Positions 21,526 through 43,510 of a stretch of DNA of 64,000 nucleotides are shown in pieces. This stretch comes from an uncultured Saprospirales bacterium (GTDB lineage: Bacteria > Bacteroidota > Bacteroidia > Chitinophagales > CAJXBJ01). Under the pieces are notes generated by a model, which saw only the letters and a program-made list of their open reading frames with translations, was not told where the DNA came from and made no database searches. The position numbers and the translations under genes are program-made. The stretch covers positions 2,916 through 66,915 of the forward strand of contig CAJXBJ010000001.1 in assembly GCA_913050195.1 (NCBI GenBank), in the 5' to 3' direction. Every line of letters begins with the position of its first letter. The stretch's first letter is position 1.

Positions 21526-21527
21526 AC

Positions 21528-26810: not shown

Positions 26811-27572
26811 ATGAATCTAGGACTTAAAAATATAGCCCTAATATTAGTTCTGCTTTGTACAGGTGTAGCTATTGCAGCGGATCCACCAACAGAAACAGAT
26901 AAACCTAAAAAGGAAAGTCGTTCTGTAAGTGCTATGGATCATTTTGAATCACATGTAAAGAGCCTTTTTTATGATTGTGGATTATTAAATCAGATGAGCT
27001 ACCGACTATTTAAAAAGGCGGTTATAGGTTATTATAATATGAAGCGTGAAAATCTATTATCTGGTCATTTATTGACGGTTATAGATTTTAGACAAGCATC
27101 TAACCAAGAAAGACTATACATTATAGATATGGAAGAAAGAAAGCTTATCAGACGTAGTTTAGTGGCCCATGGCAAAAACAGTGGCGGGAAATATCCAGTT
27201 AGCTTTTCTAACACTCCTGAATCAAATAAAAGTAGTATTGGCTTTTATGTTACGGCCGAAACCTATTATGGCGAAAATGGACTTTCTTTAAAGATCGACG
27301 GCAAAGACTTTCCGTTTAATACTAATGTCCGTAAACGCCACATTGTAATTCATGGCAGTGACTATGTAAGTCAAGAAGAAATAGAGAAACAAGGTTTCAT
27401 CGGTCAAAGCGAAGGATGTCCGGCCTTACCCTGGAATAACTATAAAGAAATAATAAACACCATTAAAGGAGGGCACTGCTTATTTATTTATTCAAGCGAC
27501 CCACTGTATCAAAACTATTCTGCCTTTATGAACTTTAAAGGTGCTCTAAGCTATTACATTAGCTCTCTTTAA
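26811..27572 (+). CDS. L,D-transpeptidase catalytic-domain-like (YkuD_2-type) protein
   Basis: Signal peptide. The C-terminal motif IVIHGSDYV...GQSEGCPALP resembles the His...Cys active site of L,D-transpeptidase-like proteins. Confidence 0.7.
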   Translation: MNLGLKNIALILVLLCTGVAIAADPPTETDKPKKESRSVSAMDHFESHVKSLFYDCGLLNQMSYRLFKKAVIGYYNMKRENLLSGHLLTVIDFRQASNQERLYIIDMEERKLIRRSLVAHGKNSGGKYPVSFSNTPESNKSSIGFYVTAETYYGENGLSLKIDGKDFPFNTNVRKRHIVIHGSDYVSQEEIEKQGFIGQSEGCPALPWNNYKEIINTIKGGHCLFIYSSDPLYQNYSAFMNFKGALSYYISSL

Positions 27573-30346
27573 TTTTGCAAATCATAGGTCCAACTCACAT
27601 AAAAGAGTCGACCGACACGTGGACCACCATAGGCTTCAATATGTATATTATTTAACAAGTTTGAGGCCCCTATCTTTAAAGCCGAGTTCCATTCTGGCAT
27701 TGAATATCTTACTTGGGCATCCAAAAGGGCATAAGAGGGCACAAAACCATCTGCAAATGGACTTTCCCATATGAATCCTTGACACCATTTGTAATTAAAA
27801 CCAAAACCCCATTGCTCATATATATCTTTAGCTTCAACACCAAAATTCAATTTATGCTTTGGTGTATTAAATCCTGGTATAATTGGATCTTCAAGCGCGG
27901 CTGTATCCATTTCGCTGTAAGTAAAATTAGCCTTTGCACTCCAATGACGGTTAAAATAATAAGCTAATCCAACAGTTGCACCATAGGAAAGCACATTCTC
28001 TCTTGCATTAACAGGGAACTGATATAATTGATAGTTTATCTGATCATCTGAATGGGTTAAAATAGCATCCATACCACTTTCTTCGCCAGCAACAGCATCA
28101 CCCAATAACTTGTAACCTCTTACATCTCCAATAAAATTCTTGTAAATATTATAGTATGCAGTCAAATCCAAATAAAATCCATCATCTAAAATACCCCTGT
28201 AACCAAGCTCAAATGATTGTACTTGCTCTGGCTTTACTGGGTCAATAGTTAGTGTCTCCAACAAACCACCATCAATAGAATAGTTTTCATCATAATTGGA
28301 CCTAAACTCCTGTACAGAAGCGTAGGAATACATATTACCAACACCATTCAGGTTTCCCGATAATATAATGGGACCTATATCTAGCATTAAGTATTGATTC
28401 TGCAAAGTTGGACTTCTAAATGCCTGTTGCAGTGATGCACGAAAATTATGCTCATTATGCGTTAAAACCAAAGACATTCTTGGAGAATATTGCCAATCAT
28501 AATTTTTACTTTTATCAGCTCGCATTGAAACAATAAGCTTGAGTTTATCATTAAAAAATTGATTAGTCAGCTGTACATATCCTCCTGCCTCATAAGTAGA
28601 AATATCAAAAAAGGGTGCAGAAGGATTCGGTTGACCATCACTCAAAGTGTCCGCGGAACTTAATAAGGTATCAGAGAAAATAGTCCCAAAGGAACGCGGC
28701 CTATATAATCTATAAGCTCCACCAATAATCAAATCACCTAATGACAAACTTGTATTATATTGTCCTTCAAGGTGATGCAAAGCTGATTTGTCCAAAAACT
28801 TAGAGCCTGATTGAAGATCTGGATCATTAATAATTGTATTATAGGCTGAATCATACACGGCTGTTCCTTTTTGGTACCAAGCCTGCTCTGCTGCAATAGC
28901 AGCCATTTTATGTGCACTATCAACTGCCCAAATCTGAGGTGATGAACCAAACTCATTTGTTAAATCACTCAGGGTTGAAAAATATTCTCCCATATATTCG
29001 GAGACATAATTATTAGCCGCTCCTTTGCTTAAATTAATACCAGTAAAAACAAGATCATAGGAGTCTCCAGCATTTTCTAGTGTCGAATAAGCCTTTACAT
29101 TTAACTTTTTGCTTTGCAATTCAATCTTATGCTGAAGTGCTGTTATATTTTTTATAGCATATCGATTAGAGCCTTGATAAACAGCACTCCCCTGTCCAGC
29201 CTTGGTCATGTATGAGAGCTGTAATGAATCAGAAAACTTATAATACATAGCCGCAGATGCTTTTATACTTTCCACTCTATTATTTCCTAGCTCAGACTCC
29301 ATATAACCTGGAGCATTTACTTGGATTTCACCCGGTTGAGCCAAAGGATAAAACCACATATAAGTATTAAGAGACGCATATTTATCTCGGTCTTCAGCAC
29401 TTAAACTCTGGTCATGCTGTAATTGACTTGTAATCTCCGTTAAATTTACGTCAATAGCTAAGTCACCATATCTATTTAAACTAGTATCATCTGCTATCCA
29501 ATCTGTTGCTGACATATAGCCTGCTGTAATTTTATAAGCAAAGCGATTATTTTCTCCTATTTTTTTTGCGAATCTAAATTGTGCTTCACTAAGCGAATTA
29601 GAGCCACCTTTAACTAAAGCACTTAATCCAGGGTAACGAAATGGATCTTTTGTCGTCATATTTACAACGCCCTGAAAGGCATTAGCTCCGTATAACGCCG
29701 AAGCCGCTCCAGAAATAACTTCTATGCTTTGTAAATCCATCTCCATTGCGCCAATTAAATTACCTATCGGGAAGTTTAATCCAGGAGCCTGATTATCCAT
29801 ACCATCTATAAATTGAACTGAACGCACAGGAGATGTAGAATTAAACCCCCTTGTATTAAAGGATTTAAAGCCCATACTAGAGGTAACGATATCCACACCA
29901 CTTAGATTAGAAAGGCTTTGATAAAAATCTCCTGATGATGAATTTTGAATCTCCAATGCACTTACTTTTTGAATGGCTACTGGAGCCTGCATTAAACTTT
30001 CACTTTTTCTTGATGCTGAGACAACCACTTCTTTTGCATACACGCCAAGAGCTTCCAAATAGAAGTCATAATTTTTAACTCCCTTAGATATCGCTACCTT
30101 TTGCACATTGTATCCAACATAAGAAACACTAAGTGTAATACTTGCCTTTGCTCCAAAATCCAAGCTGATATTATATTTTCCATTGATATCCGCACTAACG
30201 CCTTTCTGGGTACCTTCAATTATGATCGTTGCAAATGCTAAGGCTTCTTTAGTTTTTGCATCAAATATTTGACCTTCTATTGCATCCGTCTGTGCCATAC
30301 ATATAAATGATGAAAGCAGACCTATTGATAAAATTAAAAACCTCAT
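27569..30346 (-). CDS. TonB-dependent receptor (last gene of the metalloregulator/T9SS unit)
   Basis: Signal peptide, then IEGQIFDAKTKEALAFATIII...YVGYN (CarboxypepD_reg-like), a plug (FNTRGFNSTSPVRSVQFIDGMD) and a barrel ending FYVSWTYDLQN. It starts 9 nt after the upstream gene. Confidence 0.88.
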   Translation of the reverse strand: MRFLILSIGLLSSFICMAQTDAIEGQIFDAKTKEALAFATIIIEGTQKGVSADINGKYNISLDFGAKASITLSVSYVGYNVQKVAISKGVKNYDFYLEALGVYAKEVVVSASRKSESLMQAPVAIQKVSALEIQNSSSGDFYQSLSNLSGVDIVTSSMGFKSFNTRGFNSTSPVRSVQFIDGMDNQAPGLNFPIGNLIGAMEMDLQSIEVISGAASALYGANAFQGVVNMTTKDPFRYPGLSALVKGGSNSLSEAQFRFAKKIGENNRFAYKITAGYMSATDWIADDTSLNRYGDLAIDVNLTEITSQLQHDQSLSAEDRDKYASLNTYMWFYPLAQPGEIQVNAPGYMESELGNNRVESIKASAAMYYKFSDSLQLSYMTKAGQGSAVYQGSNRYAIKNITALQHKIELQSKKLNVKAYSTLENAGDSYDLVFTGINLSKGAANNYVSEYMGEYFSTLSDLTNEFGSSPQIWAVDSAHKMAAIAAEQAWYQKGTAVYDSAYNTIINDPDLQSGSKFLDKSALHHLEGQYNTSLSLGDLIIGGAYRLYRPRSFGTIFSDTLLSSADTLSDGQPNPSAPFFDISTYEAGGYVQLTNQFFNDKLKLIVSMRADKSKNYDWQYSPRMSLVLTHNEHNFRASLQQAFRSPTLQNQYLMLDIGPIILSGNLNGVGNMYSYASVQEFRSNYDENYSIDGGLLETLTIDPVKPEQVQSFELGYRGILDDGFYLDLTAYYNIYKNFIGDVRGYKLLGDAVAGEESGMDAILTHSDDQINYQLYQFPVNARENVLSYGATVGLAYYFNRHWSAKANFTYSEMDTAALEDPIIPGFNTPKHKLNFGVEAKDIYEQWGFGFNYKWCQGFIWESPFADGFVPSYALLDAQVRYSMPEWNSALKIGASNLLNNIHIEAYGGPRVGRLFYVSWTYDLQN

Positions 30347-30355
30347 ACCTAACCT

Positions 30356-33199
30356 TTATTGCTTTAATATTTTGTCTCTTAAAACACTACCATCGTCCTT
30401 AGAAATTAGCTCAAGGAAATACACCCCCCGCTCTAAACCTTCAAATGTTATTTGATATTCTCTTTGAATATTTTTTTCCAATAATACCTTACCTGACATT
30501 TCATACATTCGAAGCTGGTATATGTCTGGTTTTTCAAGATATATTGAAATCATATCTGAAGTAGGATTTGGGAACACCAAAAGCTTATCATTTGATATAA
30601 TTGATGCCTCTTCAAGCTTTGTAAAACCTTCCTGATAAATAGGCAATTCTAAATGTGTTGGATGTGTTGTAGAAAAGGCAATACGCTGAACTGCTTTTCG
30701 AGCGGCAAACATCTGCCCATTATAGTTTAAATATTGACCATCCATGGGCTCTCTCAAATAATAAGTCCCGTCATCTATAGGCAAGTTAGCATTAACTTGA
30801 TACCTTGGATGATTACTACTGCTTATTAGGATCTTAATTTTATGCCCTTTACCCCAAGTATATGCGATGGGCATTAACTTAAAATAATATTCATAAAGTT
30901 CACCTGAATTTATATTTGAAAAGACTGCATTATCATCTTCATTATCTACTGCTAATGAATGAGCATATTCACGAGCCCTGGCATTAAGAGCTCCCTCAAC
31001 TACAAAAAACTCTCTGCCGTCAGGGTATACATCCAATATACGTACAAAAAAATCTGTATCTGTTGTACCGTCAATATCTGGAGAAGGGCTAGACTTAGCA
31101 TACAGTTTCATTCTTGGAAAGCCAATGAGACATAAAGAATCTACTATAACTGAACTTTCAAATTGAAGGACACCTGGTCGGTCCATTCCATGATATCTAT
31201 AATTTTCATCTGCAAGGTTTATTTGACCCTGACTTTTTTTATTACTACCTGGAACATTGGGAATCATATTTGCTCCTCCCAACGTTCGAACTGGATCATC
31301 GGGATCATGCACGTAAACTGCATAGCCCTCATCACTTTGTGGAGCTTGTCTATCAAACCCACCATTTTGATGTAAGTACCATTTTTCCCAATGCAAGTTA
31401 TCTACTATTGGAAAAGTATCTGAAGCAAACCAATAGTTAGACAGTTCTGCATTTTCAGCCACACCATCATTAACCGGACCTACTACATAAAAACGTATGT
31501 TTGGAATCTCATTAGCAAAATCTGGCAATGATGCTTCCTCAACGGCACCTGGTGTGAGTCCTTCAATTAAGGGAACTCCAAATGATGGGATACTAAAGGT
31601 AAAGCTTATTGAATCTCCTGGAATAGGCGCAGGTGGACTAAAACGAACCTCTCCTTTCAGCCCATGTAATGGCTGAGAGCCACTTAAAAAGTTAAACATA
31701 TCAGCAAAGCTCATGTTATAATCCTCAGCAGGAATACGTACACTAAAGTATCCTCCTAAATCATCCCAATCTGTATTTTCTGGGAAAATGTAAGAAGCAT
31801 CTCCTACTGACTTATAATCATTATAATTAAGTGTATATCTATACCACTGAATCAGTTCTGACTTTAAAATACTTCCAAAATCCGCATCTGCTATTTGCTC
31901 TAAATTGAATCGGGTAATATTGAGGGCATTGTCTTTATAATTTATATCTCCTGTAGATAAAGAGCTGACAGTTTGATGCGCCCATGGCCCAATAACTAAT
32001 TTTTGAAGCTTTGCTAAAGAATCCTCTATGTGAGAAACCATTTGTTTATGTGTCTCAATTTGCCCATCGATAAAAATGTCCCACCATCCAGTTACATGAT
32101 AAGCTGCCACTTGCATATTTTCATAACGAGAATGATTTCCCTGAGGGTCTGCTTCTCCTTGCGCATTGACAGGTGCTCTACTAGCATCCATATCCGATCT
32201 TGCAGGACAGTTAGGATAATAATTAGGCAAATTCCCATTTGAGCTTATTGTTGTGAAATACTCGATAGCTTTATCTGCAACCTCCATTTTAGTATTTAAA
32301 TCAAAATCTGAAGGCGTATGAATAGCGTTCTGATACAAGGTATCCAATGTATCCGAGTTTTCGATCAAATCTAATAATTGCCCTTTAAGCCAACCTTTTA
32401 CTATACCTTCTCTAAAAACTCCATTTTGAAAACCTGTGACATTATGATGTTCGTTGGTTGCAACTATTGGTATTAAACCTTTCAATCCAGCTTTACTTGG
32501 GTCTATACGATGTGCCGCTGCTGCTTGATATTGAGTATTGCCTAAAGCTGAAGCTCCAAACATACCAATAATGCCATTATGGAGCATAGAATCTGTGTGA
32601 GGGAGATCTCCATAATCTCTTGTTAGGCTATCCAAAATAAACTCAATACTATTATATCCATCTTCATGCTTATTTGAATTAAGCGGATCATTAAGGCTTG
32701 TGACATCTAAAACATGTGCATAGTCAGGATGATACGCCGTCTTTTCCCAAGAATCACTTAACATTGGATAATAGATACCCTCTGAACGGTATCTACCCCG
32801 CATATCCTGTATTCCATAAGTATAACCTAATAAAGACATAACACCACCAGCCATATCATTTCCCTCTTTACCATAAGGCGTTCTAGTGAAAATAAACGGT
32901 AACTGGTACGGATTATTATTAAGACTGCCATTTAAGGAATCATATTTAACAATCTGAGCCCCTTTCTTAATAATCTGCACATTTACATTCCCAGCTAATG
33001 GAATATCAATATTTACCCTTAAGCTGTCTCTAACTATTGGCAAATAAACATTCGTCATCAACTTAACCCCATCCGGCATTGTAAAAGGGACTTCAACAGG
33101 AGTACAAAATTCTTCTATTTGATCTAGAATACCATTATTATTTTGAGATGATGCAAAGAATGCGAGACTCATGGTCAAGCCAGTCAAGAATTTTTTCAT
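30356..33199 (-). CDS. CocE/NonD-family (S15 X-Pro dipeptidyl-peptidase-like) serine hydrolase with T9SS type A C-terminal sorting domain
   Basis: Signal peptide. DGVKLMTNVYLP and FTRTPYGK are CocE/NonD hallmarks, and GMFGASALGNTQ is a nucleophile-elbow-like site. The C-terminal ~80 aa (LLVFPNPTSDMISIYL...GVYFLELI) match the T9SS type A CTD pattern. Confidence 0.8.
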   Translation of the reverse strand: MKKFLTGLTMSLAFFASSQNNNGILDQIEEFCTPVEVPFTMPDGVKLMTNVYLPIVRDSLRVNIDIPLAGNVNVQIIKKGAQIVKYDSLNGSLNNNPYQLPFIFTRTPYGKEGNDMAGGVMSLLGYTYGIQDMRGRYRSEGIYYPMLSDSWEKTAYHPDYAHVLDVTSLNDPLNSNKHEDGYNSIEFILDSLTRDYGDLPHTDSMLHNGIIGMFGASALGNTQYQAAAAHRIDPSKAGLKGLIPIVATNEHHNVTGFQNGVFREGIVKGWLKGQLLDLIENSDTLDTLYQNAIHTPSDFDLNTKMEVADKAIEYFTTISSNGNLPNYYPNCPARSDMDASRAPVNAQGEADPQGNHSRYENMQVAAYHVTGWWDIFIDGQIETHKQMVSHIEDSLAKLQKLVIGPWAHQTVSSLSTGDINYKDNALNITRFNLEQIADADFGSILKSELIQWYRYTLNYNDYKSVGDASYIFPENTDWDDLGGYFSVRIPAEDYNMSFADMFNFLSGSQPLHGLKGEVRFSPPAPIPGDSISFTFSIPSFGVPLIEGLTPGAVEEASLPDFANEIPNIRFYVVGPVNDGVAENAELSNYWFASDTFPIVDNLHWEKWYLHQNGGFDRQAPQSDEGYAVYVHDPDDPVRTLGGANMIPNVPGSNKKSQGQINLADENYRYHGMDRPGVLQFESSVIVDSLCLIGFPRMKLYAKSSPSPDIDGTTDTDFFVRILDVYPDGREFFVVEGALNARAREYAHSLAVDNEDDNAVFSNINSGELYEYYFKLMPIAYTWGKGHKIKILISSSNHPRYQVNANLPIDDGTYYLREPMDGQYLNYNGQMFAARKAVQRIAFSTTHPTHLELPIYQEGFTKLEEASIISNDKLLVFPNPTSDMISIYLEKPDIYQLRMYEMSGKVLLEKNIQREYQITFEGLERGVYFLELISKDDGSVLRDKILKQ

Positions 33200-33202
33200 C
33201 GC

Positions 33203-34918
33203 TTATATTTTTACAATCTTTTTAATATGTTTTGATCTATCAGTTGTTAGACGCAACAAATAATTGCCAGGGTCTAGTTTTTTCAAAGCAGGACTAAGAT
33301 TTATATTAACACGACTGTTTAGTTTAACAGAACTGTACAAATTTGAAATGAATTTTCCTTTAATATCTAGCAATGAAAGCTTTACATTTCTAGCATTTTC
33401 TAATTTCAATGCGACATTACATACATCGTTAAAGGGATTAGGATAAACCCCCCAATATGTCTCCTTATTCATCAACAAGTGTGACGAACTATTTTGTATT
33501 GAATCCTTGAGTATGGTAAAGTGGTCTAACTCCTCATTATGCGCTGTTATAAATCGTCCATCTAAACGCCCTCCCTCTATATCCAAAACAAGAGAACCCG
33601 CACAAGTATCACAGCCATAGCCATAATACATTGCAGGATAATTTAAACCTGGATTTGATTTAACACTTGCCGAATTACCACAAACGATATACATAGTCCC
33701 TTCATCCCCATTAGCCTGATTTAAATCTTTTAAATAAGCCTGCCCCAAACTATCATAACCACTATTTCCATTAACAATCATCGTAGATGCATTGAATGTA
33801 TTTGGATCATCATAATGTCCTTTAATCAAATATGACCGCTCATAAACATGAGAATGTCCAGCCATCACCAAATCAACATTATATTGCTCTAATATGGGCA
33901 AAATATTTTCACGCATAGCCTTCATAAATACTTCCCAAAATGCTTCGGAATCATGGGAACCATCAGTAAATGGAGGCTGATGAAAATATACAATAGTCCA
34001 TGTCTTATCATTTTGTTGCAAATCATTATGAATCCAATCAGTCATTGGACTAGAAACAAAAGAAGAGGCAGATGTATTAAAATAAGGCAATGTACCAATC
34101 CAGTCATGAGATGAATTAAGTAGGTTTATTGATCCTAGCTCAGAATTAATACTTAAGAAATGTACATTACCGTAATCAAAAGAATAATAAAGCTCAGTGC
34201 CTGATGGATAGCCACCTCCTTCTCCATTTGTTGGCACATCTACAATATCATAATAAGGACCACTATGAGACCATGGATTAATACTACTAATTGGACTCGG
34301 CGGAGACACACTCATATAATCATGGTTACCAGGGCAAGGCATAAACGGCATATAAGGCATAATCTGTCCATATGCATTAACTGAATCAAAAACCTTCGTT
34401 TGATATTCATTATCAGTACCACTCTGATATGCATTATCACCCAACCAAAGCCAAACATCTGTATGATTTGTGTCTGTCCAATTTAAATAGGCATCACGAA
34501 CTTTTTTTTGCATAGTATTGCCTTTCCCAAAGTCCCCAATTGTCCAAATTCTTATTGGCTGTTCCGAATATGGAGGAGGTGCTGTTCTAAAGCGAAAACC
34601 CTCCGTACCACCGGCCAACAATTGACCACCATTTTCAATTTGGTAATAATAGGTCGTGTTTGGATTCAAATTTGAAATTTTCAACTGATGATCATACAAC
34701 TGACTAAAATCACTAACTGAAAAACTCTGCCCGCCTAAATTTTGATCATAATGGACTTTAGCGTCTGTAACAACATCCGTACGCCAACAAACAACTACAG
34801 AAGTATCGGTTAGCTCCTGAAGATAAGGCCCACGACTTATATTTATCTGTCCAATAGCAAGGCTATAAGAGAATAACAGTAGTTGAGTGATTAATATTCG
34901 TTGCATCTTGTATCCCAT
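33203..34918 (-). CDS. Purple-acid-phosphatase-like metallophosphoesterase with T9SS type A C-terminal sorting domain
   Basis: N-terminal PAP-type beta domain (RGPYLQELTDTSVVVCWRT). Metallophosphatase motifs GDFG, GDNAY, GNHDY and GHSHVYER. C-terminal VYPNPFNDVCNVAL...GNYLLRL matches a T9SS CTD. The start could be the ATG at 34906. Confidence 0.85.
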   Translation of the reverse strand: MGYKMQRILITQLLLFSYSLAIGQINISRGPYLQELTDTSVVVCWRTDVVTDAKVHYDQNLGGQSFSVSDFSQLYDHQLKISNLNPNTTYYYQIENGGQLLAGGTEGFRFRTAPPPYSEQPIRIWTIGDFGKGNTMQKKVRDAYLNWTDTNHTDVWLWLGDNAYQSGTDNEYQTKVFDSVNAYGQIMPYMPFMPCPGNHDYMSVSPPSPISSINPWSHSGPYYDIVDVPTNGEGGGYPSGTELYYSFDYGNVHFLSINSELGSINLLNSSHDWIGTLPYFNTSASSFVSSPMTDWIHNDLQQNDKTWTIVYFHQPPFTDGSHDSEAFWEVFMKAMRENILPILEQYNVDLVMAGHSHVYERSYLIKGHYDDPNTFNASTMIVNGNSGYDSLGQAYLKDLNQANGDEGTMYIVCGNSASVKSNPGLNYPAMYYGYGCDTCAGSLVLDIEGGRLDGRFITAHNEELDHFTILKDSIQNSSSHLLMNKETYWGVYPNPFNDVCNVALKLENARNVKLSLLDIKGKFISNLYSSVKLNSRVNINLSPALKKLDPGNYLLRLTTDRSKHIKKIVKI

Positions 34919-36856
34919 TTAATTAACTATATTCATAACTGCTTCCCTAAATAAAACTTTATAGTCTGATCTAACTTGAATAAAACAAGCCTGATTTTCA
35001 GGAAACCTAATTAAATCATTCTGCAATTGATTTACTTTGCCTGCTCTATAGTAAATGAGCTGTCCATTAAGATTATACACCTCTAAATACAGATTATCTT
35101 CTTTAGGAAATTCTTTCAAATCAAAGTATAATTGTATTCCTTCAGTTAAATAATGCAGAGCGACACCTGTAATAGCACCAACGTTTATAATTTTATAAAT
35201 CACTTCTTGAACACATCCTGCATTATTTGTCTCTGTCAAACCAATTAATCCTTGCCCTGAATTAAGCCACTGAACATTTAGATTTGGTGAAAACTGACCA
35301 CTCAGCAATAGGCCGCCAGAGACCGTCCATTCAAATATAGATCCTGGCGATGGCCTTACACTGTATGTGGAAGTATCTGATTGATTAACATTTAAAGGTC
35401 CTGTAACCTCACGAACATAATAATTGTCATAAACAGCATTTTGAAAACCTGGGGTTCCTCCCAAAGTACTTGTGGATGCCATCCATGAATTTGTTCCTGG
35501 ACAGGTGTCCATTGGTTGTATAAGCTCTAAGGACCAACCACCAGCATCTTTTGATTCATCACCATACCAATTTTCAGTGTAGTGTATAGAGTCAATTAAT
35601 TGCATAGATGAGTCATATAAAATAATAGAGTCTCCACCATTGTTTAAGCTAGGCCAAGGACTTAACCCCATCTTAGATTGAACGGAGCTAAAATGAATGG
35701 TATCGGATTTTTTGCACAGCAATAAATACCCATTGGGAAATAAATAAAAATGATCTAAATCTGTTATCGTGCTGCCATCTGTAATGGACCAATCTTTCAA
35801 GTTAATGAGCTTATTTGAACGATTATAAAGCTCTATATATTCCTTTTGAGGAAGGCCTTGTGATGGATTTGGGTCTGGCATCAATTCATTAATGCGCACA
35901 TCATTATACACTATGAATTCAGGAGCATATTTTAAAAAATTAATACTATCATTCATTGAATTACCTGAAGTATCTGAAATATTATTCGCATACAAGGTAT
36001 AAAGCTTATTCTCATGTACGGTATCGGGAAAAAAAAGCATGTACTTACCAGTAGATTGAATAAATACAACTGAATCTGGCTGCCCTAAATTAGGAAAGAG
36101 CATATAATTTGAATTTATTAAAGCGGAGGAATCAATCATCTCATTAAAACTAATACTCAAACTAGAATCACTTTCTATGTTACCATCAATAATATAAGGT
36201 GGCGTTTTATCCGAAATAACTTGGCCATCAACTACAAGACTATCAAAATAAAATTTATCCGACCTAGAAGCAGTATACCTACAGTAAAAACCAGTATAGG
36301 CAGCCTGCAAATATGTGGAATCTGCTATACTTCCAAGAAATGAAAAAACATGGCCACCGCTTAAATCTGCAAAGATTCGCCATTTTGCCAAACTATCTCG
36401 CGTTACTCGCAAACGAATGTTAACTGTTGAAGTATCTATTAAACCATCCATTCCATCAATGATTTCTATATGCTGATTACCTTCTTGACGATAAAGGGAA
36501 ATCTCATCCTCACTACCACCTATTTTCAAATAATAACCGTAAAGTGCTCCCTCAACATTTTTAACGTCTGAGCTAAGATAGAAACGCGCATAATTGTTTG
36601 ATGAGGGATTAAATTTAAGCTTTAGCCAAAACTCCCATTGTGCATTATACAGTACTGACGAAGGAGTTACTATATATGCTGTATCGCTTACACTAGGTGC
36701 ATTCAAATGTAATTTATCGGAGTTTAGCTGAAAAAAAGCAGTATCTCCATACCATGCATTTGTTTGCCCCAAAACACTATCTGAAAAATACTCCGTTATT
36801 TGAGCACTTAGAAAGAACGTCAATAAAGAAGATAAACTCAGAATTATGCGTAGCAT
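34919..36856 (-). CDS. Lamin-tail-domain (LTD) protein, secreted, with probable T9SS type A C-terminal domain
   Basis: Signal peptide. The central VRINELMPDPNP...EYIELYNRSNKLINLKDWSITDG is the LTD signature. The C-terminal LYLEVYNLNGQLIYY... resembles a T9SS CTD but is weaker than in its neighbours. Confidence 0.7.
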   Translation of the reverse strand: MLRIILSLSSLLTFFLSAQITEYFSDSVLGQTNAWYGDTAFFQLNSDKLHLNAPSVSDTAYIVTPSSVLYNAQWEFWLKLKFNPSSNNYARFYLSSDVKNVEGALYGYYLKIGGSEDEISLYRQEGNQHIEIIDGMDGLIDTSTVNIRLRVTRDSLAKWRIFADLSGGHVFSFLGSIADSTYLQAAYTGFYCRYTASRSDKFYFDSLVVDGQVISDKTPPYIIDGNIESDSSLSISFNEMIDSSALINSNYMLFPNLGQPDSVVFIQSTGKYMLFFPDTVHENKLYTLYANNISDTSGNSMNDSINFLKYAPEFIVYNDVRINELMPDPNPSQGLPQKEYIELYNRSNKLINLKDWSITDGSTITDLDHFYLFPNGYLLLCKKSDTIHFSSVQSKMGLSPWPSLNNGGDSIILYDSSMQLIDSIHYTENWYGDESKDAGGWSLELIQPMDTCPGTNSWMASTSTLGGTPGFQNAVYDNYYVREVTGPLNVNQSDTSTYSVRPSPGSIFEWTVSGGLLLSGQFSPNLNVQWLNSGQGLIGLTETNNAGCVQEVIYKIINVGAITGVALHYLTEGIQLYFDLKEFPKEDNLYLEVYNLNGQLIYYRAGKVNQLQNDLIRFPENQACFIQVRSDYKVLFREAVMNIVN

Positions 36857-36870
36857 TTACTTAAAAGAAT

Positions 36871-39792
36871 TTAGCGTATCAAACTCAAATTACCCTGCTT
36901 AACATAGGGCTTGCCATATAATGTCCCAGTAACTAAATACACATAAGTCCCAACAGGCTGCTCATGGCCGTTAAATGTTCCATCCCATCCATATGCCATA
37001 TCAGTACTTTCAAACACAAGACTACCCCATCTATTGTAGATCTTTAAATTGAAATCACCGACAAACATACCCTCTGCAAACACTATATCATTTTCACCAT
37101 CCATATTTGGAGTAAATGCAGAAGGAAGATTCACTACAGACTCCAAAACCTGCACCTCTACAGTATCTATAGTCTGACAACCAACACTATCCGTCGTCGT
37201 AACATAATAGGTGGTTGTAAGGGTTGGTGATGCTATAGGGTCGGGACAATCATCACAGGACAAACCTGTACTTGGAGACCACGAAACTTGAGCACTAGCA
37301 TTTGTTTGAAGTTGGACATAACCCCCAATTTCAATCTGCACATTGTCACCAGCATCAATAGTTGGAAGCTCTTGAACTATAACCAATATTGAGTCCCTAC
37401 CAGTACAAAAATTATCACTAACAGCTAACAAGAAATTGGTGGTTGTATCTGGTGTTGCTGATGTATTTAAGGAGTAAGGGTCATTAACCGCCAATGGTGG
37501 ATACCATGCCACACCATTACCAACGCCACTGCCATATAGATCAATACTCTCTCCAAAGCAAATTATTGTATCGTTGTCTAAAACTACATCTGGTGCATCT
37601 CGGACATTAATATTTTTGCTCCCAGAGGCTGAACCACACATATTGAGCGCATAGATTAATAACTGTTGCTGCCCAGGAGTATCAATTTTAACGGTAATCT
37701 CATTATTTCCAGTATCTATAACTGCTCCGTGAGGCAGCGTCCATTCATAATATGTATTCTGGTAAAATGGCACAGTATAAGTGACTGTATCACCCTCACA
37801 AATTAAAGGGTCTCCTGTTATGTAGGTCTGCGGAGGCGGAATAACATCTATCATTATCGGAGGAGACATCTCCCCTAAGCAACCAAAATTAGTTTCTTGA
37901 GCTGTAAACTCTAACAACCCTATACTATTAAATTGCACCCAAAGCGGATTTTTAGGATCATTTGGAGGAAAAGCATTACCATTCAAATACCATTGATATT
38001 TGGAATCGGAATTTGCAAACAAGACCATTACATAACTAATATCACTATAGCAAAGCAGTGAATCTGGTGTGTACAATTCAAGTGGAATAATCGCAGGGGC
38101 TCCTATAGTCAAGCGAATAATAGTACTCCACTTTTGATCACTTAAAGACGGGTGCGTTGCAACCAGTCTTATATACCAGAGCTTAGGCATAATCCCAACA
38201 CTTCCTAAATTTGGCACAGAAGGAATGTTTATATCAATTGAAGTTGAAGTTGTAGAAGCCTTTATACCAATGCCTCCAAGATTCACTTGAGCCATTGTTT
38301 TAGCATCTAATATTTCTACCATAAAATTATTAGAAACACCATACGTCACCATGGTATTGTAGGTATTAATATCAACAGGCACATTAACGGTCACACCATG
38401 TGTATCTGAAACACAAACACTAATATCTTCCTTCTGATTAAACTCCACATCACATTCTCGAATACAAAATGGCCCCCAGGGCGCGCCTGAAACAGCTGGG
38501 TTCGTTGAATTAACCCTTACGTAATAGCCACAACCTTCAGGCACTGTGGGAACAATACCACCAACCTGTCCAGGGTTCATAACCATTCCTGGCTCATAAG
38601 TCTTTACATCTGGATTCGAGTTAATAATCGTTGAGTTCACAAAACTACCATTGGTATCTGATAATTCTGCAACGTATTCATTTCCACTTAAAAAAACTCC
38701 ATAAGACCAAAAGGGAACATCAATTGCACTACCAATACAAACTGCATTAGTATCCATTGTTACAGAAGGCTGTTCTGTCACAATACTGTTAGCACATGAA
38801 TCTATAATAAAGCAAATACTCTCAGTGCCTACTATAGTTGGTAAAGGAAATAATCTTTTAACCCTTAGCTTGTAACAATTAGACGGCACCGCACTGCCGG
38901 GTATTTGAATAGCAGTTGTTAGACTTACGTTTGGATAACTTAAACCAGTAACCCAAGCTCCTATGCTATTACCAAAGTTCCCATTGTGGTCTGAGACTTC
39001 AATCTCATAAGTCGCATCACATAATGTATCTGACAATTCGTATGAAAAAGACAAAATTTTGCCTTGACAAACCGCAGAGTCAATAGCTGTTATAGTAATA
39101 TCAACTGGATCGTTAACCTCATCATAAGTTCCAACTATCATAACATCATCAACACCAATTGACGTTGAGTCTGCTCCACTTGTCGATGTATTATACCATC
39201 TGAAGCCTAGACGTAAATCCTTTAAATCATTAAATGCAGGATCCGTGATAACCTCAAACTTCCACATACTTTTGCCATTATACTTTAAGGCTCCCGTTTT
39301 TGTCCAAGAACCACTGTTTGCACTGTAATATACTTCCATGTATGCATCCGGGTTGCCTTGACCACTGTAGAAAAAACTAAATTGCACATCTGTCATCCCA
39401 AAGGTGCAAACTCCATCTAACATTGCTACAAATTCATCTGATGCCGCTGATCTGTCAAAATTTGCATTCAAGGCCGACGAAGTAGAATCTTGAATATGCA
39501 GATAGTTTGATTGAGGAGCACCACCTATTGTACCAGAATAAGTATTATTTTGATCTAAATTATCAGGATAGATGCCCTGACCTGAATATTCAGCATTAAC
39601 AACCCATCTATTTTGATCTCTATCATTATCAAATACTGAGTCTTCTATAGCAAAAGTATGATTAGGGCTATTAAAATCTTCTACATAAACCTGAATAGTC
39701 TGCTGAGCATATACCCCCTCAAACATTATGCATAAAACCGCAATAAATGGCCATTTAAAGAACTCTACTATTTCAGTTAATCTAAACATCAT
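36871..39792 (-). CDS. Large secreted multi-domain protein with T9SS type B (gliding-motility-associated) C-terminal sorting domain
   Basis: The C-terminus AFTPNMDGENDIVF...IYNRWGSLVFES...WDGTFNG...GTYVYLV is the TIGR04131-type pattern. The N-terminal jelly-roll-like module ends in ...IGVDDVMIVG. Cys-rich Ig-like repeats lie between. The start forms an ATGA overlap with the regulator stop. Confidence 0.8.
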   Translation of the reverse strand: MMFRLTEIVEFFKWPFIAVLCIMFEGVYAQQTIQVYVEDFNSPNHTFAIEDSVFDNDRDQNRWVVNAEYSGQGIYPDNLDQNNTYSGTIGGAPQSNYLHIQDSTSSALNANFDRSAASDEFVAMLDGVCTFGMTDVQFSFFYSGQGNPDAYMEVYYSANSGSWTKTGALKYNGKSMWKFEVITDPAFNDLKDLRLGFRWYNTSTSGADSTSIGVDDVMIVGTYDEVNDPVDITITAIDSAVCQGKILSFSYELSDTLCDATYEIEVSDHNGNFGNSIGAWVTGLSYPNVSLTTAIQIPGSAVPSNCYKLRVKRLFPLPTIVGTESICFIIDSCANSIVTEQPSVTMDTNAVCIGSAIDVPFWSYGVFLSGNEYVAELSDTNGSFVNSTIINSNPDVKTYEPGMVMNPGQVGGIVPTVPEGCGYYVRVNSTNPAVSGAPWGPFCIRECDVEFNQKEDISVCVSDTHGVTVNVPVDINTYNTMVTYGVSNNFMVEILDAKTMAQVNLGGIGIKASTTSTSIDINIPSVPNLGSVGIMPKLWYIRLVATHPSLSDQKWSTIIRLTIGAPAIIPLELYTPDSLLCYSDISYVMVLFANSDSKYQWYLNGNAFPPNDPKNPLWVQFNSIGLLEFTAQETNFGCLGEMSPPIMIDVIPPPQTYITGDPLICEGDTVTYTVPFYQNTYYEWTLPHGAVIDTGNNEITVKIDTPGQQQLLIYALNMCGSASGSKNINVRDAPDVVLDNDTIICFGESIDLYGSGVGNGVAWYPPLAVNDPYSLNTSATPDTTTNFLLAVSDNFCTGRDSILVIVQELPTIDAGDNVQIEIGGYVQLQTNASAQVSWSPSTGLSCDDCPDPIASPTLTTTYYVTTTDSVGCQTIDTVEVQVLESVVNLPSAFTPNMDGENDIVFAEGMFVGDFNLKIYNRWGSLVFESTDMAYGWDGTFNGHEQPVGTYVYLVTGTLYGKPYVKQGNLSLIR

Positions 39793-40451
39793 GACGCTCT
39801 TTGGACAAATAAGTTTTTGGCCACCTTGTGGCTTAAGCTTTTTTCTTCTTTACCAACCTTAATACGCATAGAACCATCATAGGGAAATATATCTAAAACC
39901 GTTAGCTTAACCCCCAAAACTAAAGCATGCTCATCAAGAAATCTCAAGAAGTGATCATTGGAATCATTGACTCCTACAACAATTCCACGTTCTGCCTTTT
40001 GCAAATTATCTAAAGAGATACTTTGTGCATGTTCTACAAGATTGCCATCTATATCTGGAATTGGATCTCCATGAGGGTCAAACTTTGGAAAATCTAAAAA
40101 TGCATCTAGCCGATCAGTTAAATCCTTGGATTGAATATGCTCTAGCTGCTCAGCTATTTCATGTACTTCATCCCATTTAAAATCTAACTTTTCTACTAAA
40201 AAAACTTCCCATAATCGGTGTTTCCTTATAATCCCTAAGGCAATTTTTTTCCCATTTACCGTTAACCTAACCCCCTGATACTTTTTATAGTCTACGAAGC
40301 CTTTTTCTGCCAACTTCTGAACCATATCTGTTATGGACGAAGCTTTCGTTTTTAGACGTTCTGCCAAAGCGGTGGTTGAAGCCCAATTCTCAACTTGATA
40401 AGTCAGATAAAATATAGCTTTTAAATAATTTTCTTCTGTTTGAGAATTCAT
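39789..40451 (-). CDS. DtxR/MntR-family metal-dependent transcriptional regulator with C-terminal FeoA/SH3-like domain
   Basis: The N-terminal winged helix (EENYLKAIFYL...TTALAERLKTKASSITDMVQKLAEKGF), the dimerisation/metal-site region (RKHRLWEVFLVEKL...EVHEIAEQLEH) and a C-terminal SH3-like domain fit DtxR/MntR/IdeR architecture. Confidence 0.88.
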   Translation of the reverse strand: MNSQTEENYLKAIFYLTYQVENWASTTALAERLKTKASSITDMVQKLAEKGFVDYKKYQGVRLTVNGKKIALGIIRKHRLWEVFLVEKLDFKWDEVHEIAEQLEHIQSKDLTDRLDAFLDFPKFDPHGDPIPDIDGNLVEHAQSISLDNLQKAERGIVVGVNDSNDHFLRFLDEHALVLGVKLTVLDIFPYDGSMRIKVGKEEKSLSHKVAKNLFVQRAS

Positions 40452-40508
40452 GGCATTTCAATCTAGTGCAAAGTAAGAAAAAATAGCGTAAATTTGTAAT
40501 AAGTCACA

Positions 40509-40527
40509 CTAGGTAACTTATTCCTAG
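40509..40527. promoter_or_regulatory. Candidate DtxR-family operator: imperfect 19-bp palindrome CTAGGTAACTTATTCCTAG
   Basis: The outer five positions pair perfectly (CTAGG/CCTAG) and 6 of 9 pairs match overall. The TAGGT...CCTA arms resemble the DtxR/IdeR consensus TTAGGTTAGCCTAACCTAA. It lies in the 96-bp divergent gap, 20 nt before the WD40 ATG and about 58 nt upstream of the regulator ATG. Confidence 0.3.
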
Positions 40528-40547
40528 AAAAGTCGTATCACAAAAGC

Positions 40548-42485
40548 ATGCGGTCAATAATTGCCATATTAAGCCTTTGTTCTTGCCTTTTTGTTTTCTC
40601 TCAGGAAGAAGCTGAATTTAGATACATTCAAACATATGGCGATCACAAAACACCCATTGAAAGAGTGGTCTTTTCACCAGACAACAAACACATCATTAGT
40701 GGAGACTTTGATGGAATGTTGTTCTTCTGGTCTAAAAACAAGAATAAGCCAAAACACGAACATCGCGCTCATAATAATCGAATCAACAATATCAGCTTCA
40801 GCGAAGATGGTCGGTTTATGGCTACAGCGAGTAGTGACAAGACTGCTAAAGTGTGGACTTACCCTGATATGAAGCTGGTCAAAACATATAACTCAGATCA
40901 TAACATTTCCTTTATTTTATTTCACCCAGACAGCAGGCAAGTATATTTTGGCGGACAAGATGGAAGCATTTACAAACACTCATTTCTGTCAAAAAGCAAT
41001 CCATACCCTATTTATCACAATCCTTACTTTATAACTTCTGCTACCTACTCACCTGATGAGAAACATTTAGTATTTAGCTCAGGATTTTCAATTAAGTTTT
41101 TAAATCTAAGCACTAGTCGAGTAGAAAAAGAAATCGGTTCTTGCTCAGACTATGTCAACCAAATTGTATTTACTCCCAAAGGAAACCTTATTAGTTGGTG
41201 CGAAGATGGCACCCTTAATTATTGGGACTACCGCTTCGGATTTTATGGCCTTCTTTACAGCAAAAAAGCAGGTAAAACAGGATATAGTAATCTAGTAGCA
41301 TCCAATGACAACAAATATTTACTTACAGGTAATTCAGACAACAATGCTCGAATATGGGACCTACAAACTAAAAGTTTAGTTGGAGAACTGAAGGGACATA
41401 TGGATGTTGTGCGCTCCTTCGCATTTAGCAAAGGCAACCATTACATTGCTACATGTAGTTATGATGGCAACATTATACTTTGGGGAACACCCTACAGATA
41501 TCAGCAAGAGCAGAAAAAAATCATGGCTCAAAAAGCTGCAGCTGATGAATTGGTTCGCTCTGAACTTGCTGATGTAAATCCTATGATAAATAAGGCAGGC
41601 AACAACAAGACTGTTAACCCGATTTCTGAGCTCGACAACATACTGAATAAAAGCAATTTAGAAAGCCTTAAGGAAATTAAAAAAGAAGCAATAAGAAAGC
41701 CTAAAGCACCCATTAAAAAAGAAATTAAAATCAAATCCCAAGAGCTCGCTCAATTAGAAGTAGCTGATATAACAAGCGACATAAGCCAACTTAAAGAGCC
41801 AAAAGCCAAGGTAAACAAGCTAGAATTAAAGCCTGAGCAAAAACCGCATTTTAGTATGGATGTTCAAAAGATTCCACCTTTAAAACAAATGAAAGACCCA
41901 TTAGCGAACCATCAACCCAAACTCAATAAAGAAACATACAAACATAAAAGCCTAAATTTTGAAGCCATTGAAAAACGGGCAATGGAAGATGAGTTTGAAG
42001 CTTATTCTGTAAGCAGTGCTAGACTTGAAGCTCATGAGGAAGAAGATGTCAATTCTATAATGAAAAATATTATTGTTGCATACGAACAAAAAAATGTCCC
42101 ATCTGCAATTGATAATAGAAAAGTGATTACATCAAAAACTGTGGCTGTCAGCCAGAGTAACATTGAAGTCTTTATTTGGGATAACATGAAAGTAGATGGA
42201 GACCAAATTTCTATGATGATGAATGGAAAGTGGGTCTTACATAAACACACTTTATCTCAACACAAATTCAAGCTTGACTTAAAAATAGATCCACACTCGA
42301 ATAATTTTCTAGTTTTATATGCACACAATTTAGGTACCCAACCCCCTAATACGGCCGCTATTCGATTTTATGATGGTGAACGAACAAGAGAATTGCTACT
42401 AAAATCTGACCTTGGTGAGTGTGGTGCAATCAACTTTGTATACCAGTCTAATGCTGGATTAACGGGATATCAACCATCCAAATAG
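40548..42485 (+). CDS. Secreted 7-bladed WD40 beta-propeller protein with Lys/Glu-rich linker and an unassigned C-terminal domain
   Basis: Signal peptide MRSIIAILSLCSCLFVFSQ. Seven WD40-like blades (e.g. SGDFDGMLFFW, ASSDKTAKVW, GNSDNNARIW, CSYDGNIILW). Residues ~320-480 are low-complexity K/E/Q-rich. The last ~130 aa (IEVFIWDNMKVDGDQISMMMNG...NTAAIRFYDG...INFVY) are not recognised. Confidence 0.75.
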   Translation: MRSIIAILSLCSCLFVFSQEEAEFRYIQTYGDHKTPIERVVFSPDNKHIISGDFDGMLFFWSKNKNKPKHEHRAHNNRINNISFSEDGRFMATASSDKTAKVWTYPDMKLVKTYNSDHNISFILFHPDSRQVYFGGQDGSIYKHSFLSKSNPYPIYHNPYFITSATYSPDEKHLVFSSGFSIKFLNLSTSRVEKEIGSCSDYVNQIVFTPKGNLISWCEDGTLNYWDYRFGFYGLLYSKKAGKTGYSNLVASNDNKYLLTGNSDNNARIWDLQTKSLVGELKGHMDVVRSFAFSKGNHYIATCSYDGNIILWGTPYRYQQEQKKIMAQKAAADELVRSELADVNPMINKAGNNKTVNPISELDNILNKSNLESLKEIKKEAIRKPKAPIKKEIKIKSQELAQLEVADITSDISQLKEPKAKVNKLELKPEQKPHFSMDVQKIPPLKQMKDPLANHQPKLNKETYKHKSLNFEAIEKRAMEDEFEAYSVSSARLEAHEEEDVNSIMKNIIVAYEQKNVPSAIDNRKVITSKTVAVSQSNIEVFIWDNMKVDGDQISMMMNGKWVLHKHTLSQHKFKLDLKIDPHSNNFLVLYAHNLGTQPPNTAAIRFYDGERTRELLLKSDLGECGAINFVYQSNAGLTGYQPSK

Positions 42486-42544
42486 ATAATTTTTCGCTTA
42501 GTTTTATTAACTTCCTTCTTTCTTTTTAGAGTAGAAGTAGAATT

Positions 42545-43510
42545 ATGGGAGCAGGAAATACTTTAAGCAAAGAAGAGCTTAATGAATATTTTGACCTTAT
42601 TGCAAGCAAAATTGGAGTAAAGCCTTATCATCGACATTTTGAAAGTGCAGAAATCATATCTGATGGATTAAAAATACATTTGGATATTTTTGAACACCAT
42701 CCAAAAGCTCCAAATATATTATTTATTCCAGGCACGGCTTTATATGCAATGTGCTACGCTGAAATCATGTACAAGCTTGGCATGCAAGGATTTAATGTCA
42801 TTGGCATAGACCCAAGAGGACATGGTAGAAGCGAAGGCAATCGGGGTGATTATACATTAATGGAAGTAATGAAGGATGTTGAGAACACTATTGAATACAT
42901 TAGAAACCGATATAATGACCAAGTAAGCTTAATTGGAAGCAGTCAAGGAGGCATCCTTGCCTTCTACCTAGCAGCTAAAGATGCAAAGATACAAAGCGCT
43001 GTTTGCCAAAATTTTGCAGACCTCACAGACCCTGAAACCCTCAACCTAACAAGAAGCCCTAGTATTACCTCTTTTTTAAAACCCATCATGCTCACTATGA
43101 GCGGAGTCATAGGGGAACAATCCATACCTATCTCTACTTACTTAGATTTAGAAAGCATAAAGGTTCGCCACTGGGGTAATGCCAAAAACTTTATAGAATC
43201 AGACCCGCTTGCACTGCAAAGTATTACATTAAGAGCGTTGCGCTCATTAGCTACGACACATCTAAGCAGACCAATAGATCAAATTAAGATTCCAGTTATG
43301 GTATTCCAAGGAAATAAGGATAGCATATTCCCGGTTCATTACACAGAAAAAATATTTAATCAGCTCAATTGCAAAAAGAGAATTCAAATCTTTGATGGCT
43401 TAAACCACGCGTTGATTACAGAAGATGTAGATGTTGTACTGCCATCAATTGTGAAGTGGCTCAAAGAAATATACTCAGAAGTCAAACTCGAAGAGGACAC
43501 CCCTCTTTAG
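42545..43510 (+). CDS. Alpha/beta-fold hydrolase (lysophospholipase/monoacylglycerol-lipase-like)
   Basis: HG oxyanion region (DPRGHGRSEG), nucleophile elbow GSSQGG (GxSxG) and a C-terminal ...GLNHAL providing the His. Confidence 0.8.
   Translation: MGAGNTLSKEELNEYFDLIASKIGVKPYHRHFESAEIISDGLKIHLDIFEHHPKAPNILFIPGTALYAMCYAEIMYKLGMQGFNVIGIDPRGHGRSEGNRGDYTLMEVMKDVENTIEYIRNRYNDQVSLIGSSQGGILAFYLAAKDAKIQSAVCQNFADLTDPETLNLTRSPSITSFLKPIMLTMSGVIGEQSIPISTYLDLESIKVRHWGNAKNFIESDPLALQSITLRALRSLATTHLSRPIDQIKIPVMVFQGNKDSIFPVHYTEKIFNQLNCKKRIQIFDGLNHALITEDVDVVLPSIVKWLKEIYSEVKLEEDTPL

Follow-up and report, generated by a model that had tools for sequence, protein, structure and literature searches.

Does a metal-sensor gene that stands at the head of a string of genes for secreted proteins govern those genes, or has it come to lie there for other reasons? 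The question is raised by six consecutive minus-strand genes in a 64,000-nucleotide (nt) stretch of DNA from an uncultured Saprospirales bacterium (GenBank assembly GCA_913050195.1, contig CAJXBJ010000001.1), hereafter called the window, in which the gene for a DtxR-family regulator is followed by genes for four predicted secreted proteins and a TonB-dependent receptor. An initial annotation, made from the sequence without database searches, had described these genes as a coherent metal-responsive system whose secreted proteins are sorted by the T9SS, the type IX secretion system. The gene coordinates that it gave, and the junctions of -4, 14, 0, 3, and 9 nt counted from the regulator to the receptor, were reproduced from the open reading frame (ORF) listing. 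The genes (lengths in amino acids, aa), the source of each assignment, and the upstream region are as follows.

39789..40451, minus strand: DtxR-family regulator, 220 aa (ORF listing and Pfam)
36871..39792, minus strand: 973-aa surface protein (ORF listing and Pfam/NCBIfam)
34919..36856, minus strand: lamin-tail-domain (LTD) protein, 645 aa (ORF listing and Pfam)
33203..34918, minus strand: purple-acid-phosphatase-like (PAP) enzyme, 571 aa (ORF listing and Pfam/NCBIfam)
30356..33199, minus strand: CocE/NonD (peptidase S15) hydrolase, 947 aa (ORF listing and Pfam/NCBIfam)
27569..30346, minus strand: TonB-dependent receptor, 925 aa (ORF listing and Pfam/NCBIfam)
40452..40547, minus strand: divergent intergenic region, 96 nt, probable operon promoter

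The reading that we favor, with somewhat better than even confidence, is that the cluster is a lineage-specific composite operon in a genome-streamlined clade of uncultured marine Bacteroidota, with control by metal undemonstrated. Metal-responsive control of the operon is possible, with linkage as its one positive support, and the evidence for and against it is weighed below, after the evidence from the regulator's family, its operator, and the separate histories of the downstream genes.

The assignment of the leading gene to the DtxR/MntR type was upheld, as all three domains scored above their Pfam cutoffs (PF01325, 58.5 against 26; PF02742, 109.2 against 27; PF04023, 45.3 against 23), and the protein has the MntR/TroR type of architecture, with a winged helix-turn-helix (HTH) domain (Fe_dep_repress), a metal-binding and dimerization domain (Fe_dep_repr_C), and a FeoA/SH3-like domain. 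Its best NCBIfam match was the Thermus-type MntR (174 bits against a cutoff of 350), and it fell below the NCBIfam equivalog cutoffs of every named MntR or DtxR model. In a 32-sequence alignment that includes the window regulator, H78, E82, H97, E101, E104, and H105 are invariant, and we take these to correspond to the DtxR ligands H79, E83, H98, C102, E105, and H106. Where DtxR has Met10 and Cys102, this family has N8 and E101, which suggests selectivity for Mn rather than Fe. The window regulator retains all family-invariant residues, and its recognition helix, TKASS(V/I)TDM, is as in the family consensus.

The 119 closest relatives among the matches listed are 55-64% identical to the window regulator, and their sources are named as Flavobacteriales and other Bacteroidota. 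On long contigs, the three closest relatives share a layout of a divergent TonB-dependent receptor, then the regulator with a ZnuA-type ABC importer/ZIP, and then smpB; a fourth (61% identity) has the same layout except that its upstream gene encodes a DHOR protein. A metagenome scan with the family alignment added 80 regulator loci, and the neighbor census covered 53 downstream and 47 divergent upstream neighbors. Importers make up 39/53 of the downstream neighbors (17 ZIP, 10 ZnuA, and 12 Nramp, of which 11 also match Usp in apparent fusions), and the same set includes four Phenol_MetA_deg proteins and five second DtxR-like paralogues. No CHU_C, Por_Secre_tail, LTD, Metallophos, or S15 protein was found among these 53 neighbors. 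Upstream, a TonB-dependent receptor is divergent from the regulator in 14 of the 47 relatives. The gap from the regulator to the next gene is 5 nt or less in 48/57 cases and exactly -4 nt in 14/57, a recurrence that marks the ATGA overlap (-4 junction) of the window as an inherited family habit. Within the 64-kb window, no ZIP, Nramp, or ZnuA homologue was found.

The second DtxR-like genes that follow the regulator (L019 6571-7593, L031 2852-3874, L060 2107-3129, L061 5261-6292, and L075 10671-11687, where L numbers denote loci) encode longer proteins, of ~340 aa, with Fe_dep_repr_C and FeoA domains. Downstream neighbors of ~620 aa (e.g., L020 10719-12602 and L047 10657-12543) look to be such Nramp-Usp fusions, and an ABC-3 permease at L009 12421-13722 carries a fused Fe_dep_repr_C domain.

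The family also has a characteristic operator, a 20-bp palindrome of the form T[TA]AG-N6-CT[AT]A (consensus TTTTTAGACTAGTCTAAAAA), which lies 28-102 nt 5' of the regulator ATG in 68 loci (for example, L010 9927-9942 and L099 1642-1661; loci range L009-L091) and, in two of these, has another copy farther from the gene. A position weight matrix was built from the family sites, the median score of the training sites being 24.2. Its best score was -10.7 in the 96-nt region upstream of the window regulator and 7.9 in the whole 64-kb window, the latter below the mean shuffle maximum of 11.0; weak matches at 34958-34977 and 39769-39788 were rejected as lying below the shuffle maximum. With no importer and no operator in the window, the regulator has lost both hallmarks of the family's local regulon. 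The coherent six-gene metal-responsive system of the initial annotation is not borne out by the census, in which relatives mostly lead importers and never T9SS cargo, or by the missing operator. In other genomes, moreover, the 973-aa, PAP, and hydrolase/receptor modules are each found apart, with neither the regulator nor the other modules beside them.

Upstream of the window regulator, a Bacteroidota -7-like box (TTACTTTG) is present at 40469-40476, 17 nt ahead of the regulator ATG, and a promoter with this box is plausible. The -33 region of the predicted promoter is overlapped by an inverted repeat at 40498-40522, whose 10-nt arms are complementary at 9/10 positions and stand 5 nt apart. 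The repeat is borderline: 3.9% of shuffled regions match it, the density of such repeats over the window is 0.09 per 96 nt, and L098, a locus from the sister lineage GCA_012959255.1, does not preserve its left arm. The window and L098 do have in common a block, GTGACT..TAC..ATTTTTT, upstream of the regulator. Inside the longer inverted repeat sits a CTAGG-N9-CCTAG element, which was rejected as an operator given that 5-nt arms are expected by chance and that its spacing is 5 nt off that of the family site. A sigma-70 promoter scan was discarded, its model being ill-suited to Bacteroidota promoters (59 sites, against 69 in shuffles).

To compare the modules downstream of the regulator with their homologues, three contexts were sampled for the receptor family, three for the 973-aa family, and two for the PAP family. 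Of the cargo proteins, the 973-aa protein adjoins the regulator, its ATG overlapping the regulator TGA as ATGA. It matches PKD_6 and CHU_C, and the type B sorting domain claimed for it earlier was confirmed above cutoff (TIGR04131, 49.4 bits against 35). The protein opens with a predicted signal peptide and an N-terminal jelly-roll, continues as a string of Ig-like/PKD-like domains, and ends in CHU_C. An AlphaFold2 model built with a 40-sequence alignment is all-beta with a predicted local distance difference test score (pLDDT) of 84, and its top Foldseek matches in the PDB are the GhpA grappling hook, DSCAM, and titin. On this model, with its Ig-like chain, the protein is adhesin-like, as the initial annotation had it, and not an enzyme. 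Its family comprises about 100 clusters at 30-43% identity, with one partial member at 62%. In the three contexts, another CHU_C (type-B cargo) gene follows the homologue, and no regulator precedes it.

The LTD protein had been described as a secreted protein with an LTD and a type-A-like sorting domain, and the first two parts of this description stood: a signal peptide is predicted, and the LTD scored 67.3 bits against a cutoff of 34.3, the sole Pfam family matched by the 645-aa protein. The sorting domain was not recovered. The C-terminus has no match to the Pfam/NCBIfam T9SS models even at an E-value of 1 or less, and BLASTP against the window's two type-A C-terminal domains was not significant; hhalign against 12 type-A C-terminal domains gave 67% probability over 49 columns, with the PNP motif missing. 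The C-terminal beta region may nevertheless be a divergent type-A sorting domain. Ahead of it, the protein has a signal peptide, a conserved N-terminal domain (~1-211), a Big_5-like Ig domain, and the LTD at 318-427. Residues 1-480 correspond to a module that recurs, in repeated copies, within giant proteins 1,100-3,900 aa long, with 11,810 representatives matching. The N-terminal domain is also 42% identical to a 326-aa ORF in L095, found after an Exo_endo_phos and SprB-repeat protein; this stretch (L095 17100-20350, minus strand) lies ~4 kb from a homologue of the 973-aa family. Such a neighborhood hints that the N-terminal domain travels with extracellular phosphoester hydrolases. A PDB sequence search with the LTD protein returned nothing significant, and a single-sequence AlphaFold2 model was unusable (pLDDT 37).

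The third cargo protein was proposed to be a purple-acid-phosphatase-like enzyme with a type A sorting domain, and this identification held, with Pur_ac_phosph_N (PF16656, 40.3 against 30), Metallophos (PF00149, 62.3 against 21.5), and the type A domain (TIGR04183, 39.4 against 23) all above cutoffs. The five PAP motifs with seven metal ligands, including the Tyr, are present (GDFG, GDNAY, GNHD, FH, and GHSH), and the protein aligns to plant PAP structures; by these motifs it is a predicted binuclear metallophosphoesterase with a complete metal site. It is 571 aa long, or 567 aa when started from Met5 as in public gene calls. Scanning the genome collection with this protein retrieved four loci and only two full-length relatives, both at 46% identity and both from Chitinophagales metagenome-assembled genomes (MAGs; L001 and L002). 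Neither of the two shows synteny with the window. Instead, these orthologues, one of the two having a detectable Por_Secre_tail, lie among functionally unrelated T9SS cargo, in runs of genes that all bear Por_Secre_tail and that include GH28, glucose/sorbosone dehydrogenase (GSDH), PCMD/cadherin, and DUF4397 proteins (L001 343-10069; L002 1727-6775). Mixed T9SS "cargo islands" of this kind seem to be common.

The last two genes of the cluster belong together by a different line of evidence. The CocE/NonD assignment of the hydrolase and its type A sorting domain were both corroborated (Peptidase_S15/PepX_C; TIGR00976 CocE_NonD, 153.9 against 66.3; TIGR04183, 40.3 against 23). When it is aligned with cocaine esterase, the catalytic triad falls on Ser (GASALG), Asp (GWWDIF), and His (GPWAHQ) of the hydrolase, and by this correspondence to CocE we presume that these residues have the same catalytic roles. 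The receptor has CarbopepD_reg_2, Plug, and barrel domains and is TonB-dependent. It is not SusC-type by its scores (TIGR04056, 78.1 bits against 368.25; SusC signature, 24.6 against 46.2), and no SusD lies beside it, its flanks being the S15 hydrolase and a convergent YkuD_2 gene, so the earlier description of a receptor without a SusD partner is accurate. It also scored below the siderophore and heme models (TIGR01783, 100.6 against 223.5; TIGR01785, 80.3 against 316.85), and no siderophore/heme biosynthesis or binding-protein genes were found among the window ORFs of at least 150 aa. We thus agree that the locus is neither a classical polysaccharide utilization locus, having no SusC/SusD pair, nor a siderophore locus.

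Receptor homologues of ~920-950 aa, nearly all at 98% of the length or more, occur across Bacteroidota at 46-56% identity, with one partial member at 68%. In 3/3 contexts, a hydrolase orthologue (48-52% identity) adjoins the receptor orthologue (50-56%), with the same rank order of identity for both proteins; the two genes are in tandem in L092 and L093 (gaps of 110 and 20 nt) and divergent in L094. The coordinates of the pair in each are as follows.

L092 6891-12838: hydrolase/receptor pair
L093 666-6340: hydrolase/receptor pair
L094 7019-12826: hydrolase/receptor pair
Window 27569-33199: hydrolase/receptor pair

No regulator, LTD, PAP, or CHU_C gene was found near the pair in the three contexts. 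The pair, with a hydrolase of ~950-1,000 aa and a receptor of ~930 aa, occurs in contigs from several metagenomes and MAGs, and the sources of the receptor family are labeled Flavobacteriales, Chitinophagales, and Bacteroidia. From this conserved adjacency and co-ranking, the S15 hydrolase and TonB-dependent receptor are a conserved two-gene unit, which is apparently uncharacterized. The initial proposal of hydrolysis followed by import through the receptor fits these two genes.

All five proteins downstream of the regulator begin with a segment that resembles a signal peptide, with a hydrophobic stretch and small residues followed by Gln. These segments were judged by eye, and signal peptides are accordingly predicted for the four cargo proteins, where they had been noted earlier, and likewise for the receptor. 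The residue right after the predicted cleavage site (marked here by a hyphen) is Gln in all five: VYA-QQ, LSA-Q, AIG-Q, ASS-Q, and CMA-Q. Bacteroidota are reported to prefer Gln at position +1 after signal peptidase cleavage, and the pattern here agrees. Genes for T9SS machinery were not found within the 64-kb window.

The close packing of the six genes, which the initial annotation had pointed out, is real but not distinctive, since the genome is compact throughout. The 0-nt junction ahead of the PAP gene holds for the 571-aa ORF, whereas the Met5 start of the public gene calls widens it to 12 nt. The window is ~95% coding, and among the 27 same-strand junctions outside the cluster, 17 measure at most 14 nt, the median being 5 nt; because tight junctions are common genome-wide, the spacing of the cluster is not exceptional. 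A terminator scan of the region gave 14 terminator-like sites against 10.4 expected from shuffles, which is chance level, and none in any of the five short junctions. The same gene order is found in all identical or near-identical contigs from marine metagenomes (including a Tara Oceans scaffold and JGI 3300020430). A mobile-element origin was considered and rejected: there is no tRNA gene and no integrase-type match among annotated ORFs of at least 150 aa, and the GC content (0.36-0.38) matches the surroundings.

Several observations weigh against reading the cluster as a mere composite. Only three contexts were sampled per cargo family. The adjacency of regulator and cargo is also not confined to this genome, whereas the initial annotation had named confinement to this genome as a finding that would count against its own proposal. 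In the sister lineage GCA_012959255.1, the 2.4-kb contig L098 has the regulator (63.6% identity) directly upstream of a partial 973-aa homologue (62% identity), with 17 nt between them, so the adjacency is shared by lineages that have diverged to ~63% protein identity. This could mean that the regulator-973 adjacency is more than a one-off accident and that linkage has been selected for. A neighbor-joining tree of 121 regulators, made with no bootstrap, places the window and L098 regulators and close variants in a five-member clade, and this subclade has substitutions at conserved positions of the HTH region (N27 to T/S and I29 to L), with S165 differing as well. These substitutions could reflect a changed operator rather than a lost one; no canonical operator was found in the 70 nt that the L098 contig has upstream of its regulator, and the borderline 25-bp palindrome of the window overlaps the -33 region of the predicted promoter. 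Co-transcription of the six genes is judged likely from spacing, as neither a terminator nor a promoter would fit into the junctions. A receptor orthologue of the same sister lineage (HIF14744.1, 68% identity) was found on another short contig, of 3.2 kb.

Taken furthest, these observations would describe a true metal-responsive secretion and uptake regulon, in which a Mn/Fe sensor has been rewired from an importer to its own operon of T9SS cargo and receptor, and metal supply sets the production of a metal-dependent phosphoesterase, other exoenzymes, and an uptake channel. We consider this doubtful, with perhaps a modest chance of being right. The regulator is intact, with every family-invariant residue kept, as are its leader position and ATGA overlap; the adjacency to the 973-aa gene is kept in L098, whose regulator forms a clade with that of the window; the HTH-region changes and the loss of the canonical operator in the subclade fit a switch of binding site; the palindrome at 40498-40522 overlaps the predicted promoter; and the binuclear metal site of the PAP enzyme is complete. 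Yet no operator was found, the palindrome is borderline against shuffles and has a left arm that L098 does not share, and a recognition helix identical to the family consensus argues against a new DNA specificity. T9SS cargo is downstream in none of the 53 relatives, while the cargo modules are found elsewhere without the regulator. DtxR-family proteins usually repress when metal is plentiful, and repression at plentiful metal suits importers better than an enzyme that requires metal. A more specific proposal, that a subclade of marine Bacteroidota MntR-like regulators has been rewired via a new, hypothetical operator to an operon of T9SS adhesin, phosphoesterase, hydrolase, and receptor, such that Mn/Fe gates attachment and scavenging, strikes us as unlikely. 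If true, trace-metal status and the acquisition of organic phosphorus or peptides in the ocean would be directly linked through regulation.

The opposite explanation is that the adjacency is meaningless, with the regulator acting only in trans on importers elsewhere, the cargo promoters lying inside the upstream coding sequence, and the spacing reflecting streamlining. Tight junctions are indeed the rule in this genome, unrelated genes included, and unrelated T9SS cargo also clusters in the Chitinophagales loci. A -7-type motif (TAGTTTTG) does lie within the regulator gene at 39915-39922, 123 nt ahead of the 973-aa start, but it was not counted as an internal promoter: a scan for TAnnTTTG, the Bacteroidota -7 motif, found 40 on this strand in 64 kb, ~1 per 1.6 kb, which is the background frequency that composition predicts, so that the site inside the gene carries no weight. 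Where stop and start overlap there is no space for termination, the five junctions have no terminator-like site, and the adjacency survives ~63% protein-identity divergence; we therefore regard this explanation as quite improbable. Still further from what the data suggest is the idea that the terminal receptor is a metal or metallophore importer that has replaced ZIP/Nramp/ZnuABC as the regulator's target, with cargo inserted between the two. The divergent receptors of the 14 regulator relatives speak in its favor, as does the finding that, of the three full-length window receptors compared, the terminal one best matches the regulator-associated receptors (N-terminal 240 residues), and in some sources its homologues go by the name "iron complex outer membrane receptor." However, that similarity amounts to just 24-33% and does not extend beyond the generic N-terminal and plug region, for which reason orthology of the window receptor to the receptors divergent from the regulator was rejected. 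Its true orthologues (50-56%, full length) are always beside an S15 hydrolase and not the regulator, its TIGR01783 and TIGR01785 scores are under the cutoffs, and "iron complex" is a generic name assigned by orthology. We give this idea almost no credence.

Under the favored reading of a lineage-specific composite operon, the ancestral regulator would have been the tightly coupled leader of a ZIP/Nramp/ZnuABC importer operon behind a palindromic operator. In this clade it would have kept its leader position and stop/start overlap while losing importer and operator, and would now stand ahead of unrelated modules joined head to tail, namely the adhesin, the LTD protein, the phosphoesterase, and a pre-existing hydrolase/receptor unit. 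A single promoter upstream of the regulator would read through all six genes, and if the regulator still acts on this promoter, a new binding site would be required. The five downstream products would cross the inner membrane by Sec, and the cargo would exit via the T9SS, the sorting signal of the LTD protein being putative. The adhesin and LTD protein may keep the cell attached to particles or polymers, the phosphoesterase may free phosphate from organic esters, and the S15 hydrolase may release small peptide or ester products for import by the receptor.

Should the regulator govern this operon, the locus would be an uncommon instance in which a DtxR-family metal sensor controls adhesion and secreted enzymes instead of metal transport, and it would tie trace-metal limitation genetically to limitation of phosphorus or organic matter in marine Bacteroidota. 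Should it not, which we think more likely, the locus would illustrate how streamlining fuses unrelated modules into operon-like strings; since streamlining can do this, tight spacing alone is no proof of functional coupling. Two by-products of the comparison may be more useful than either outcome: the defined operator and regulon architecture of the Bacteroidota MntR-like family, and the conserved SusD-less hydrolase/receptor pair.

The rest of the window is ordinary chromosome, with genes for alanyl-tRNA synthetase, GatB, DnaJ/GrpE, molybdenum-cofactor biosynthesis, and purine catabolism, and Rfam and tRNA scans of the window gave no matches, a Mn riboswitch included. Divergent from the regulator, at 40548-43510 on the plus strand, are genes for a 645-aa bacterial WD40-repeat protein and then a 321-aa alpha/beta hydrolase (Hydrolase_4), and this pair flanks the regulator in every same-species contig. 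At the other end of the cluster, the 3' end of the receptor gene shares 4 nt (27569-27572) with that of a convergent gene for a YkuD_2 L,D-transpeptidase (26811-27572, plus strand). Further TonB-dependent receptor genes lie at 18250-20607 and 20623-23891, the stretch 21528-23891 being paired with a DUF4249 protein; the first window ORF (227-1141), near the 5' end, has a match confined to the C-terminal part of the TonB beta-barrel model and may be what the window edge leaves of a receptor gene. With so many receptor genes in the window, chance co-occurrence of a regulator and a receptor is unremarkable. The molybdenum-cofactor cluster (43679-52355 and 57879-59039) encodes MoaA, a MoaC/MogA-like fusion, MoaE, MobA, MoeA, and FdhD, together with a 766-aa molybdopterin oxidoreductase and a 437-aa ORF (45985-47298) without a Pfam match. 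Three neighboring ORFs at 54144-57899 have zero Pfam matches. The region 59636-64000 encodes purine/ureide catabolism, with DUF6986 (malate-synthase-like similarity), OHCU decarboxylase, allantoicase, and an amidohydrolase.

Our literature search found no published account of this combination of genes, in agreement with the initial annotation, which knew of no described system of this composition; nor did it turn up a description of the hydrolase/receptor pair, an LTD/PAP system, or this regulator family or regulon in Bacteroidota. A T9SS-secreted metallophosphoesterase has been reported in Riemerella anatipestifer (PMC12398890).

Individual parts of the cluster do resemble known systems. The window regulator shares its three-domain architecture and conserved metal-binding positions with MntR, TroR, ScaR, SloR, and IdeR, and its relatives, like leaders of the MntR/TroR type, head ZIP, Nramp, or ZnuABC operons behind a palindromic operator. 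In contrast to those leaders, it has neither importer nor canonical operator and is followed by T9SS cargo and a TonB-dependent receptor. The S15 pair is similar to SusC/SusD and RagA/RagB loci in that a surface or secreted hydrolase is encoded beside a TonB-dependent importer. It differs from them in that there is no SusD/RagB partner, that the receptor is not SusC-type, that there is no ECF sigma/anti-sigma pair or hybrid two-component regulator, and that the S15 enzyme has a T9SS sorting domain, predicting export, and is not a lipoprotein. Similar to the GhpA of Aureispira and SprB-like filaments, the 973-aa protein has an Ig-like chain ending in CHU_C, and GhpA fragments are its top structural and sequence matches; it is, however, far shorter than GhpA (973 aa against 5,898 aa) and, unlike GhpA and SprB-like proteins, has its own conserved N-terminal jelly-roll domain without a family assignment. 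The cluster as a whole is like other T9SS cargo clusters of Bacteroidota, such as those of L001 and L002, in placing type A and type B sorting domains on unrelated side-by-side proteins, but it includes an LTD member without a recognizable sorting domain and is headed and overlapped by a metal-sensor gene. Judged by homology, then, every part belongs to a known family, and what is new is an MntR-type operon leader with predicted non-transporter cargo.

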